A stretch of 64,000 bases of DNA from Escherichia phage vB_EcoM-PM133: sequence record MZ234052.1. The stretch is one strand, 5' to 3'. The notes beneath the pieces were generated by a model. That model did no database searches. It was given only the letters and a program-made list of their open reading frames with translations, and was not told where the DNA came from. The position numbers and the translations under genes are program-made. Below, piece by piece: positions 46,357 to 55,672 of the stretch (position 1 is the first letter of the stretch; every line of letters starts with the position of its first letter).

Positions 46357-46429
46357 TGGGAATTAGCCAAGTTGGTAAGGCACTGGATTTTGATTCCAGG
46401 ATGCAAAGGTTCGAGTCCTTTATTCCCAG
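46357..46429 (+). tRNA. tRNA-Gln (anticodon UUG)
   Basis: Cloverleaf: acceptor tgggaat/attccca, anticodon stem ctgga/tccag, loop ttTTGat; CCA not encoded. Confidence 0.85.
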
Positions 46430-46430
46430 C

Positions 46431-46517
46431 GCGAGAATGGCCAAATTGGTAAAGGCACAGCACTTAAAATGCTGCGGAATGATTTCCTTGTGGGTTCGAG
46501 TCCCACTTCTCGCACCA
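46431..46517 (+). tRNA. tRNA-Leu (anticodon UAA)
   Basis: Acceptor gcgagaa/ttctcgc, loop ctTAAaa, long variable arm; CCA encoded. Confidence 0.85.
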
Positions 46518-46522
46518 AATTT

Positions 46523-46596
<74 letters not shown>

Positions 46597-46606
46597 ATTT
46601 AATTTA

Positions 46607-46680
46607 CTCCGTGTAGCTCAGTTTGGTAGAGCGTCTGCTTTGGGAGCAGAATGTCGTAGGTTCAAATCCTGCCACGGAGA
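46607..46680 (+). tRNA. tRNA-Pro (anticodon UGG)
   Basis: Acceptor ctccgtg/cacggag, D-arm agctcagtttggtagagc, loop ttTGGga. Confidence 0.85.
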
Positions 46681-46682
46681 CT

Positions 46683-46772
46683 GGAGGCGTGGCAGAGTGG
46701 TTTAATGCACCGGTCTTGAAAACCGGCAGTCGCTCCGGCGACTCATAGGTTCAAATCCTATCGCCTCCGCCA
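46683..46772 (+). tRNA. tRNA-Ser (anticodon UGA)
   Basis: Acceptor ggaggcg/cgcctcc, loop ctTGAaa, long variable arm; CCA encoded. Confidence 0.85.
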
Positions 46773-46777
46773 GTTTT

Positions 46778-46853
46778 GCTGATTTAGCTCAGTAGGTAGA
46801 GCAACTCACTTGTAATGAGAAGGTCGGCGGTTCGATTCCGTCAATCAGCACCA
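46778..46853 (+). tRNA. tRNA-Thr (anticodon UGU)
   Basis: Acceptor gctgatt/aatcagc, loop ctTGTaa; CCA encoded. Confidence 0.8.
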
Positions 46854-46854
46854 A

Positions 46855-46929
46855 GGCCCTGTAGCTGGAAGGTTCAAGCAAGCGACTCATAATCGCCAGA
46901 TGGTGGTTCAATTCCACCCAGGGCCACCA
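46855..46929 (+). tRNA. tRNA-Ile (anticodon CAU, probably lysidine-modified; could score as Met)
   Basis: Acceptor ggccctg/cagggcc, loop ctCATaa; T4-like phages carry an AUA-reading tRNA-Ile at this position. Confidence 0.7.
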
Positions 46930-46938
46930 AATTAATTT

Positions 46939-47025
46939 GGGGAGTTATCCCGTAGAGGTAGCGGTGTGGACTGTAAATTCATTGTCATTGCGACTCGGGT
47001 GGTTCGACTCCACCACTCCCCACCA
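46939..47025 (+). tRNA. tRNA-Tyr (anticodon GUA)
   Basis: Acceptor ggggagt/actcccc, loop ctGTAaa, long variable arm; architecture like bacterial tRNA-Tyr. Confidence 0.7.
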
Positions 47026-47029
47026 ATTT

Positions 47030-47104
47030 GGATGTGTAGCTCAATAGCAGAGCGATCGCCTGTTAAGCGATTGGTTATAGGTTCGAATCCTATCACGTCC
47101 GCCA
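47030..47104 (+). tRNA. tRNA-Asn (anticodon GUU)
   Basis: Acceptor ggatgtg/cacgtcc, D-stem gctc/gagc, anticodon stem atcgc/gcgat, loop ctGTTaa; CCA encoded. Confidence 0.75.
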
Positions 47105-47108
47105 AATA

Positions 47109-47184
47109 CGAGGCATAGCTCAGAAGGAAGAGCAAGGACCTTCTAAGTCCTGGGTCGTAGGTTCGATCCCTACTGCCTCGACCA
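47109..47184 (+). tRNA. tRNA-Arg (anticodon UCU)
   Basis: Acceptor cgaggca/tgcctcg, anticodon stem aggac/gtcct, loop ctTCTaa; CCA encoded. Confidence 0.85.
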
Positions 47185-52735: not shown

Positions 52736-53053
52736 ATGAAAACATATCAAGAATTTATTGCAGAATCTGCCGCAGGACAACGTGTAGAAGGCGGTTATAT
52801 TTGGATTGAACAAGTTGAGCCGCCGAGTCGCACTTCTACAGGTAAATGGAAAATCACTGTTGATGGTCCTGGTGGTAAACGTAGGACTCTTAAAGAAATT
52901 AACGGGTACTATGAAGAAGCTCTTTCAGACGCGGGTACTTATATGATGCAAATTATGATTAAAAACCCAGAAAATCGTTTTGCAGCTAGAGTTTTTCGTC
53001 GTATTGGAAATAAGCTTTACGACGCATATTCTAAAAATTTTCCTAAAGAATAA
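52736..53053 (+). CDS. internal protein with capsid targeting sequence
   Basis: 105-aa ORF starting MKTYQEFIAE; RBS AAAGGAAACATATG. Confidence 0.6.
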   Translation: MKTYQEFIAESAAGQRVEGGYIWIEQVEPPSRTSTGKWKITVDGPGGKRRTLKEINGYYEEALSDAGTYMMQIMIKNPENRFAARVFRRIGNKLYDAYSKNFPKE

Positions 53054-53069
53054 AAATTAAAGGAATCAT

Positions 53070-53543
53070 ATGAAAACATATCAAGAATTTATCACTGAAG
53101 CAGCTATTAATTCTCAAATTATTGCTGAATCTTTTACTGATCTTTTGAAATTTAAAAAAGGTCAAAAAATCACTGCTGTATTGGATGATGGTACAGAAGT
53201 TGAGATGGATGTACAGGGATATAATTATGCAGTAGATGGAAAACTGTATAATAAATCTCATGCTAAATTTGATTCATTTGACGACTTTGTTAATACAGTT
53301 GAAGATGAAAAAACTCGTCGATCCATTGCAACCGGTGATGCTAAGGTTCTTATGGCACATGGTCATGAACGCATTCGCGCTAAACAGAATAAAATGGGCG
53401 AAGATAATTTCGCATTAGTTGGTTATCAATCTGGTAAACAAACTTATGGTTATCAACGTACTGCTACCATGTATAATAAAAATGGTAAAATTGCCTTTGT
53501 AAATAGTAAAGGTTCTATTCAGTACGTTAAATCGTTCAAATAA
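53070..53543 (+). CDS. internal protein with capsid targeting sequence
   Basis: 157-aa ORF starting MKTYQEFITEAA; RBS AAAGGAATCATATG. Confidence 0.6.
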   Translation: MKTYQEFITEAAINSQIIAESFTDLLKFKKGQKITAVLDDGTEVEMDVQGYNYAVDGKLYNKSHAKFDSFDDFVNTVEDEKTRRSIATGDAKVLMAHGHERIRAKQNKMGEDNFALVGYQSGKQTYGYQRTATMYNKNGKIAFVNSKGSIQYVKSFK

Positions 53544-53678
53544 TATGGGAACAGCCTGGACCTCATTTGAGGTATTCCCGTCAACCTGTGATAAGGTCGA
53601 GCCAAAGCGCGGTAATGGGTAATGCAGGAATGGACAACTCATGTGCCATGGAATGGCCCAAAAATTAAGAGAGAAAAT

Positions 53679-54218
53679 ATGAGAACATTTTTAACTGGCC
53701 CGTATCTATCCCTGATGAATGCTTTTACACACCATTCTGATGCTAGAGTAGAAGAAATTTGTAAAAACGAATATATCCCGCCATTTGAAGAATTACTTAA
53801 GCAGTACTGCACACTTCGTATAGATGGTGGACGTCAATCTGGTAAATCAATTGCTGTGACTAACTTTGCTGCTAATTGGCTGTATGATGGCGGAACAGTT
53901 ATTGTTCTTTCTAATACTTCAGCTTACGCTAAAATTTCTGCAAATAACATTAAAAAGGAATTTTCGCGTTATTCTAATGATGATATACGTTTTCGTTTAT
54001 TTACTGATTCTGTACGCAGTTTTATTGGTAATAAAGGAAGCAAGTTCAGAGGTTTATCGCTTTCGCGAATTTTGTATATAATTGATGAGCCTGTCAAATC
54101 TCCTGATATGGATAAGATTTATAGCGTCCATATTGACACTGTACACTACTGCTGTAATAGTAAATGTTGTATTGGTGGTATTACTCGTCCACAGTTTTTC
54201 GTAATCGGAATGCAATAA
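53679..54218 (+). CDS. small P-loop NTPase-like protein
   Basis: Start chosen at MRTFLTGPYL; Walker A GGRQSGKS and Walker B-like ILYIIDEP. Confidence 0.5.
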   Translation: MRTFLTGPYLSLMNAFTHHSDARVEEICKNEYIPPFEELLKQYCTLRIDGGRQSGKSIAVTNFAANWLYDGGTVIVLSNTSAYAKISANNIKKEFSRYSNDDIRFRLFTDSVRSFIGNKGSKFRGLSLSRILYIIDEPVKSPDMDKIYSVHIDTVHYCCNSKCCIGGITRPQFFVIGMQ

Positions 54219-54544
54219 TGACAGACACACAGCTTTTCGAATATCTCTATTTTTCGCCAAAAACTATTAAAAATAAATTGGTAAATCATTTTGAAATTTT
54301 GGCAAATAACAACATTTTAAGCGAATTTTATCCCAAGCAATACAAATTACAAAAAGGTGTATTCAAAGGATGCAGAGTTTTGTGCACTGCTCCTAACGCA
54401 CAGTTAATGAATAAAATTCCATATTTTACCATGGAATTTATTGATGGACCTTTTAAAGGACTAATCACCCAAAGTTTAATGGCATATGATTCTGAGCCAT
54501 TTTTAATTAAAGAACAATCTTGGATAAATTTATTTTCTAATTGA
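54218..54544 (+). CDS. hypothetical protein
   Basis: Start chosen at MTDTQLFEY (ATGA overlap); ORF track extends upstream to 54164. Confidence 0.5.
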
Positions 54545-54551
54545 GGTTTAT

Positions 54552-54914
54552 ATGAAAGCATATCAAATTCTTGAAGGCACACATAAAGGTACTATTTATT
54601 TTGAAGATGGTATTCAAGCACGAATTATTGTCTCTAAAACCTTTAAAGAGGACTCTTTTGTAGACCCAGAAATTTTCTACGGTTTGCATGCTCGTGAAAT
54701 TGAAATTGAGCCACAGCCTACAGTTAAAATTGAAGGTGGTCAACACCTGAACGTTAACGTTCTGCGTCGTGAAACTCTGGAAGATGCAGTTAAGCATCCG
54801 GAAAAATATCCGCAGCTGACCATCCGTGTATCCGGTTATGCAGTTCGCTTTAACTCTCTGACTCCGGAACAGCAGCGCGACGTTATTGCTCGTACCTTTA
54901 CTGAGAGCTTATAA
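54552..54914 (+). CDS. GrcA/YfiD-like autonomous glycyl radical cofactor
   Basis: 120-aa ORF; C-terminus ...[33 protein letters not shown] carries the glycyl-radical motif RVSGY and matches recalled E. coli GrcA. Confidence 0.8.
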
Positions 54915-55135
54915 TGGCAAAGATAATTATTGAAGGTTCTAAAGATGTGCTAAATGCTTTCGCCGAGTGGTTTAGTAATTCAGGCGAACAGCAATTTAAC
55001 GAAGCGTGGAATATGGGTGATATTGATGGAATTTATCCTACTACAGAAATTTCTGTTCAGGGATATGGCATTCATGAACCTATTCGTTTAGTTGAATACG
55101 ATTTATGTACTGGTGAGGAAGTCAAATATGATTGA
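54914..55135 (+). CDS. hypothetical protein
   Basis: 73-aa ORF; ATG overlaps the preceding stop. Confidence 0.45.
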   Translation: MAKIIIEGSKDVLNAFAEWFSNSGEQQFNEAWNMGDIDGIYPTTEISVQGYGIHEPIRLVEYDLCTGEEVKYD

Positions 55136-55394
55136 AGATATTAAAGGTTATAAGCCACATACCGACGAAAAAATCGGTAAAGTAAATGCTATTAAAGACG
55201 CTGAAGTTCGTTTAGGACTTATCTTTGATGCTTTATATGATGAATTCTGGGAAGCACTAGATAATTGCGAAGACTTTGAACTCGCGAAGAATTATGCTGA
55301 AAGCCTCGATCAGTTAGCTATTGCTAAAACGAAACTCAAAGAAGCCAGTATGTGGGCTTGTCGTGCTGTGTTCCAACCAGAGGAAAAATACTAA
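55128..55394 (+). CDS. hypothetical protein
   Basis: Start chosen at [11 protein letters not shown], overlapping the preceding stop. Confidence 0.45.
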
Positions 55395-55672
55395 TGGCTC
55401 AATTAAGCGCAGGGTTTGGTTATGAGTATTATACTGCCCCTCGTCGTGTGTCTGCTGCTCCTAAGAAAATTCAAAGTCTTGATGACTTCCAGGAAGTAGT
55501 CCGTAACGCTTTCCAGGACTATGCACGGTATCTTAAAGAAGATTCACAGGACTGTCTCGAAGAAGATGAAATTGCTTACTATACGCAGCGTCTTGAACAG
55601 CTCAAAAATCTACATGAGGTTCGTGCAGAAGTTTCAAAGTCTATGAATAAATTGATTAGATTTAAAGAATAA
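55394..55672 (+). CDS. hypothetical protein
   Basis: Start chosen at [13 protein letters not shown] (TAATG overlap). Confidence 0.5.

Follow-up and report, generated by a model that had tools for sequence, protein, structure and literature searches.

Two small stand-alone proteins, Y06I of phage T4 and YfiD (GrcA) of Escherichia coli, are the two experimentally validated spare-part proteins of pyruvate formate-lyase (PFL). As that work is summarised, O2-cleaved PFL regains activity with these proteins after PFL-AE installs the radical (Wagner et al. 2001, via PMC8683613). Residues 1-60 of GrcA are disordered and residues 61-127 duplicate PFL 693-759; the N-terminal half is needed for efficient binding and activation (PMC8683613). 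In an earlier comparative study, a role in nucleotide metabolism was guessed with a Pfam match as the sole basis (PMC1524935). The gene, vs.6 in T4, and its biochemical role are already textbook-level T4 knowledge, and the annotation of another copy adds nothing new. The phage annotations that read 'GrcA' hide a phage-specific N-terminal half of unknown specificity.

A precedent for exchange with the host inside a gene is found in the psbA and psbD genes of cyanophages, where host-phage intragenic recombination has been described (Sullivan et al. 2006, PMC1484495). Like these, vs.6 is a host-derived metabolic gene of T4-like phages in which segments have been exchanged with the host copy. It differs in having a short tract (157 nt) with fixed limits and up to 100% host identity, in a direction that is apparently host to phage only, and in that sister genera take the alleles of different host species. 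T-even phages are considered to be mostly closed to DNA from the chromosome of the host. Against that view stands a host-identical tract that is unique in 64 kb and that has the own-host allele in sister genera. A literature search, with the main T4 genome review (PMC150520) outside its scope, gave no description of the patch in vs.6, of where it ends or of how it tracks the host. The evolutionary pattern (patch and host tracking) may therefore be new, while gene and function are known.

The DNA analysed, called the window here, is a stretch of 64,000 nucleotides from Escherichia phage vB_EcoM-PM133 (MZ234052.1) and is a segment of a Tequatrovirus (T4-like) genome. From 54100 to 55400 it shows 100% identity to Escherichia phage vB_EcoM-PM107 and 98% to many T4-like coliphages. 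The gene (Table 1) is a real entry of the ORF list, encodes 120 amino acids with the two terminal sequences given in the initial annotation, and is 100% identical to a vB_EcoM-PM107 CDS annotated 'autonomous glycyl radical cofactor'. Around it lies a conserved block, denV - ipII/ipIII-like - vs.8 - vs.7 - vs.6 - vs.5 - vs.4 - vs.3 - regB, and the order from vs.8 to regB is the same in T4 (NC_000866). T4 vs.6 (NP_049730, which carries the GrcA annotation in RefSeq) agrees with the window protein in 119/120 residues, the sole change being R73H in T4. The two are similar over their full length, both lie between vs.7 and vs.5 within the denV-regB region, and both have an E. coli-type core; at the DNA level T4 vs.6 differs by a few synonymous changes, mainly in the last 28 nt.

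The Shine-Dalgarno-like GAGG of vs.6 overlaps the stop codon of upstream vs.7, which ends at 54544 (vs.7 coordinates being those annotated in the identical phage vB_EcoM-PM107), and its TAA overlaps the ATG of vs.5 (54914-55135) as TAATG. These stop/start and stop/RBS overlaps (54912-54916 and 54542-54546) suggest translational coupling along the vs.8-vs.3 block. A promoter and terminator scan around vs.6 found sites no more numerous than in shuffled sequence.

Table 1. Features of the vs.6 locus (window positions)
Feature	Position	Strand	Basis
vs.6/Y06I-type gene, GrcA-like autonomous glycyl-radical cofactor	54552..54914	+	ORF list, orthology, Pfam, PDB, PHROG
Shine-Dalgarno-like GAGG, 5 nt upstream of ATG	54543..54546	+	read from sequence
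Phage-type AT-rich 5' part, N-terminal half	54552..54729	+	GC 0.34, GC3 0.20; no E. coli match
Patch very probably derived from the host, 157 nt, most of structured glycyl-radical domain (aa 61-111)	54730..54886	+	100% identity to grcA
Phage-type 3' tail, last 9 codons + stop	54887..54914	+	four synonymous differences from E. coli
GGT codon of Gly95, predicted glycyl-radical site (= GrcA G102, PFL G734)	54834..54836	+	sequence, GrcA/PFL alignment

The protein almost certainly belongs to the vs.6/GrcA type. The initial annotation had read the ORF as a glycyl-radical protein with about 60 C-terminal residues like those of GrcA, and both family searches and alignment bear this out. Pfam Gly_radical (PF01228) matches amino acids 61-101 with E=2.8e-18 (66.8 bits against a cut-off of 22.2), and residues 61-120 are identical to E. 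coli GrcA 68-127 at 60/60 positions. The motif RVSGYAV includes Gly95, whose equivalence to the radical glycines of GrcA and PFL rests on the sequence, the GrcA/PFL chain alignment and the residue numbering in PMC8683613. The E. coli GrcA structure (PDB 6OWR) is matched over amino acids 22-120 (E=8.6e-42), the PFL C-terminus over residues 697-759 (E=5e-26), and phrog_1209 over the full length (1-120, 1.2e-62). At 120 amino acids the protein also falls into the class of stand-alone small proteins of ~14 kDa whose C-terminal half duplicates PFL ~693-759. In this it resembles E. coli GrcA/YfiD (P68066; 6OWR), also stand-alone, ~14 kDa and with a structured C-terminal glycyl-radical domain.

The N-terminal half is probably a homologue of GrcA's, but it is short by 7 residues and has no counterpart of the LLNSFWLLD segment. 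It aligns with GrcA 28-67 at 35% amino acid identity over 40 residues (pairwise E=5e-6), the first ~20 residues being without alignment. Because this half is diverged, the protein falls short of the NCBIfam TIGR04365 GrcA equivalog cut-off of 170 bits, scoring 153.3 bits over amino acids 20-120 only, as compared with 233.9 for E. coli GrcA. The setting differs as well: E. coli grcA lies between ung and eamB, the window gene in an early-region phage operon.

By orthology to Y06I, one residue apart, the window protein should rescue O2-cleaved PFL via Gly95. The host activase PflA would install the radical on this residue, and the structured C-terminal domain would replace the PFL C-terminus that is lost when oxygen cleaves at Gly734. 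Production of acetyl-CoA, ATP and formate would then be maintained in the infected cell under microaerobic conditions, and a sustained fermentative ATP supply is a plausible benefit to the phage. Formate is the reductant of class III ribonucleotide reductase, and its supply may matter for phage NrdD. Repair of the phage anaerobic ribonucleotide reductase itself had also been proposed. This idea is rejected: there is no evidence for direct repair, and the C-terminal domain is of the PFL type and identical to that of GrcA. The companion proposal, that host PFL could be repaired, agrees with what has already been reported for T4 Y06I, as that report is summarised (Wagner et al. 2001, via PMC8683613), and would extend to the window protein by its sequence.

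At the DNA level the gene is a mosaic of three zones, a 157-nt core between a phage-type 5' half, which is old and evolves fast, and a 28-nt tail. BLASTN against 5,426 complete E. coli genomes matched just ORF bases 179-363 (54730-54914), to grcA in every genome and at 97.3-97.8%; the 5' half of the ORF had no nucleotide match in any of them. Near-identity to grcA over the 3' ~180 nt only is what had been predicted, and the breakpoint expected near 54730 lies there. In a base-by-base comparison, 28 mismatches in the 50 nt from 54680 to 54729 give way at 54730 to an unbroken 157/157 identity to E. coli grcA that ends at 54886. Mismatches then return at 54887, 54905, 54909 and 54911, all synonymous, and the encoded amino acids match GrcA. 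None of the 5,426 E. coli genomes shares these four tail bases (maximum 97.8%). Replacement of the 3' part from the host, as first suggested, is supported for 54730-54886 but not for the last 28 nt, which are phage-like.

Identity to grcA along the gene runs at ~45-50%, then at 100% over 157 nt, then at 86% over the last 28 nt, an abrupt phage-host break inside one gene that includes synonymous sites. Homologs without the patch show 73-90% in the core, 54-64% in the tail and 25-58% upstream. A BLAST alignment of a Mosigvirus copy that reaches grcA position 155 comes from run-on through weak similarity and does not lengthen the tract, whose run of identity begins at the same base. Composition follows the same division, as the initial annotation had noticed in describing a diverged, AT-rich, phage-type 5' half and a GC-richer 3' part with CTG, CGT and CCG codons. 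The first 60 codons have GC 0.34 and GC3 0.20, the last 60 GC 0.49 and GC3 0.42, and CTG (x5), CCG (x3) and CGT/CGC (x6) are all confined to the latter. The mean GC of the window is 0.357, and only 1.7% of 183-nt windows are as GC-rich as the 3' part. The mosaic is not peculiar to this phage: the patch was present in every Tequatrovirus and Mosigvirus record seen, among them T4, and ~505 phage records have an E. coli-type core at 95% or better.

That the core is host-derived can be held with high confidence. By megablast the grcA patch is the only strong match of the whole 64-kb window to the 5,426 E. coli genomes. The first 40 kb of the window had no match in the E. coli collection, and the other listed match, in the tRNA-Tyr region at 46936-47028, is at 88% and on some E. 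coli plasmid records. Over the core stretch, E. coli grcA is 92-93% or less identical to that of any other genus, and the donor of the core is Escherichia. The C-termini of PflB and TdcE have the same fold and glycyl-radical motif as the window protein, and pflB and tdcE were considered as donors; their 3' ends show ~76-84% DNA identity as against 100% for grcA, which rules them out.

Could an ancient whole-gene homolog have been held host-identical in its C-terminal domain by purifying and codon-usage selection, with no recombination at all? At the protein level the last 60 residues of GrcA do indeed scarcely vary, whether in Enterobacterales such as Escherichia and Erwinia or in Pasteurellaceae, and grcA shows codon bias. 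Selection on the protein does not, however, fix synonymous sites. Host genera with the same protein domain differ by 7-15% in DNA, and phages with a near-same domain but no patch (RB49, Dhakavirus/Gaprivervirus-like contigs, T5-like phages and jumbo phages) have only ~72-88% DNA identity to any host. With unpatched homologs at ~75-88%, the chance of a 157-nt run at ~0.8 identity is 0.8^157 ~ 6e-16. Bases at synonymous sites are specific to the host species at 19/19 positions, and the last 28 nt differ from grcA despite the same amino acids. Persistence without recombination is on these grounds very improbable. Still less credit can be given to transfer from phage to host or to an artefact of assembly or contamination. 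Both directions of exchange have been reported for cyanophage psbA (PMC1484495), but the GC and codons of the vs.6 core are host-like and not phage-like. Along host grcA the divergence is even: between E. coli and K. pneumoniae it amounts to 15.9% for the 5' half and 12.3% for the core, without discontinuity. In the E. coli genome inspected, grcA is flanked by ung and eamB. A phage-type head or tail occurs in none of the 5,426 E. coli genomes. Because the host genes are even and no E. coli genome has the phage-type ends, it is the phage gene that is mosaic, the transfer having gone from host to phage. As for artefact, >500 phage genomes sequenced independently of each other have the patch, the T4 reference among them.

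The host grcA alleles used in these comparisons came from a scan of genome contigs that gave 80 species. K. pneumoniae was not among them, and its allele was taken from a chromosome that PLSDB wrongly lists as a plasmid (CP125156.1). The 'plasmid' set of PLSDB includes whole or partial chromosomes, such as CP125156.1 (a 5.37-Mb K. pneumoniae sequence) and LR134122.1. The grcA of K. aerogenes NCTC10006 in PLSDB has an extra A in an A-run that truncates the annotated CDS, probably an assembly error.

Divergence between phage genera is also distributed by zone. Compared with Mosigvirus mogra, the window gene differs by 10.0% in the 5' half, 0.6% in the core and 10.7% in the tail (flanks against core, Fisher p=7e-5). 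Compared with vB_KpnM_17-11, a Jiaodavirus, the values are 27.8%, 12.3% and 28.6%, and the core value is the same as that between E. coli and K. pneumoniae themselves. Synonymous codon differences between phage genera number 13/60 in the 5' half as against 4/60 in the last 60 codons, and at the nucleotide level one of those four falls in the core and three in the tail. Judged by these rates, the head and the 28-nt tail diverge as the phage backbone does and reflect phage phylogeny, and the core follows the host.

In the Jiaodavirus phages, which infect Klebsiella, the 5' half is AT-rich, of the phage type and clearly homologous, and the phage-type tail is shared as well; the core between them is like that of K. 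pneumoniae. In KPV15 the core matches K. pneumoniae grcA at 154/155 positions (99.4%), beyond which the last 25 nt hold 9 mismatches; in vB_KpnM_17-11 it matches at 96.8%. E. coli and K. pneumoniae grcA are distinguished by 19 diagnostic core sites. Coliphages have the E. coli base at 17-19/19 of them (19/19 in the window, T4 and mogra), whereas KPV15 has the K. pneumoniae base at 19/19. The best match is to the phage's own host in more than one lineage, the coliphages being 98.7-100% identical to E. coli and KPV15 99.4% identical to K. pneumoniae, and 106 phage records carry a K. pneumoniae-type core at 95-99%. No Salmonella-type core occurs in the phage collection (best match 83.8%); pSe_SNUABM_01, a Tequatrovirus isolated on Salmonella, has an E. 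coli core (99.4%). Since the core of the Klebsiella phages is of K. pneumoniae type and has the same limits, it is highly probable that replacement took place in no fewer than two independent events, and probable that it was repeated. The evidence leans, with less assurance, towards conversion that is recurrent or ongoing.

Within Jiaodavirus the pattern is reversed, the core being more diverged than the flanks. Between phiA85 and PKO111 the flanks differ at 7/408 positions and the core at 17/155 (p=8e-6), and between Nispero and phiA85 at 2/408 and 6/155 (p=0.007). Such a reversal would be the expected product of repeated overwriting from different or newer donor alleles, and would be hard to obtain from one capture followed by drift. 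The core of PKO111 is 91% identical to K. pneumoniae and ~90% to K. aerogenes-type alleles; an exact-pattern scan of metagenome contigs for its donor returned only three K. aerogenes-type bacterial alleles at ~90%, and none above 91%. Its core codons include the AT-ending TTG, CCA, GGA and ACA, which suggests partial decay of an older patch. With no donor above 91%, part of the Jiaodavirus heterogeneity could reflect old-patch decay and not new donors.

The best overall reading, and a likely one, is that the gene is a vs.6 ortholog whose core comes from repeated host-to-phage gene conversion bounded by drops in homology. T4 has recombination-dependent replication and can rescue markers when homologous DNA containing cytosine is present in the cell; the DNA of the phage is modified with hmC, and that of the host is degraded. 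Homologous recombination during infection, either as gene conversion or as marker rescue, would overwrite the vs.6 core with host grcA DNA. A heteroduplex with the host strand would be stable only across the core, so that tract ends would be set where phage-host similarity collapses and the ends of the paired host strand would be trimmed there. The 5' limit would correspond to the boundary between the disordered and structured halves, the 3' limit to the stop and the final codons, where conservation is poor. Each conversion would raise identity and should ease the next, for which reason the core would track the host species of the lineage. This recombination mechanism is put forward from sequence comparison. 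At the 5' junction only ~8 nt of shared sequence lie upstream, which is unusual for a tract bounded purely by homology. Nor is conversion inevitable, since Dhakavirus/Gaprivervirus-like, RB49 and T5-like phages that infect the same host, E. coli, keep unconverted cores (72-83%).

Set against repeated conversion is a history of few discrete captures, in which one E. coli-type replacement spread by phage-phage recombination, one Klebsiella-type replacement occurred in the Jiaodavirus ancestor, and drift did the rest. All coliphage copies have the same limits and very similar tails, T-even phages are well known to recombine readily with each other, and the E. coli-type core common to Tequatrovirus and Mosigvirus could have spread in this way after a single capture. 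The AT-ending codons of the PKO111 core, for which no closer donor was found, also speak for old-patch decay. A few captures do not easily explain, however, why the Jiaodavirus core is 3-8 times more diverged than the adjoining 5' half and upstream DNA, or why KPV15 and PKO111 stand at 99.4% and 91% to K. pneumoniae when the Jiaodavirus 5' halves compared (KPV15's not among them) differ by 0-4%. Several coliphage cores, moreover, show 100% identity to modern E. coli even now, with flanks that differ by 10% between genera. We consider discrete captures an unlikely account, though one with some weight.

Repeated conversion could be carried further. The vs.6 core might be a self-reinforcing recombination sink, the sole T-even site that regularly copies chromosomal DNA of the current host, and this in a phage that is strictly lytic and breaks down host DNA; we offer this tentatively, at slightly less than even chances. 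If true, the core would be a natural record of the host species in which a phage recently replicated, with pSe_SNUABM_01, still carrying its E. coli core, and the Jiaodaviruses with their Klebsiella cores as examples. If conversion is ongoing, vs.6 would provide a simple assay for homologous exchange from host to lytic phage (its frequency, minimal homology and enzyme dependence) and a marker sequence from which the recent host species of T-even therapy phages could be read. It would also be a case of auxiliary metabolic genes kept compatible with their host partners.

Several copies of vs.6 are damaged or depart from the forms described above. In KPV15, despite the freshest K. pneumoniae-type core (99.4%), the gene is frameshifted by a 1-nt deletion in the 5' half (L028:1500-1862). 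In RB55 (KM607002; L167:1016-1372), where vs.6 is unannotated in the GenBank record, a 13-bp deletion removes CGGTTATGCAGTT and with it the Gly-radical codons (SGYAV), and shifts the frame. The RB55 deletion suggests that vs.6 is dispensable in laboratory propagation, or else it is a sequencing error. In RB16/RB43-like and KP15-like contigs (L014-L020) the C-terminal domain of vs.6 has GC 0.46-0.49, compared with 0.38-0.42 upstream, and is 82-87% identical to enterobacterial grcA, the KP15-like copies having the Klebsiella-type LLDAVEH. These domains may be older, decayed host patches.

Some features of the surrounding DNA can be recorded as well. The vs.8 homolog (53622-54218) contains a Walker-A-like GGRQSGKS and has a weak PHROG match to the ATPase region of the terminase large subunit (E=5.7e-6); from its sequence it may be an uncharacterised P-loop NTPase. 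Two adjacent ORFs at the T4 ipII/ipIII position, 52736-53053 and 53070-53543, both begin with MKTYQEFI(A/T)E, which resembles the capsid-targeting leader of T4 internal proteins; in the annotation of the identical phage record both are merely hypothetical. Further upstream, at 46357-47184 on the + strand, 10 tRNA genes (Gln, Leu, Gly, Pro, Ser, Thr, Met, Tyr, Asn and Arg) are clustered.
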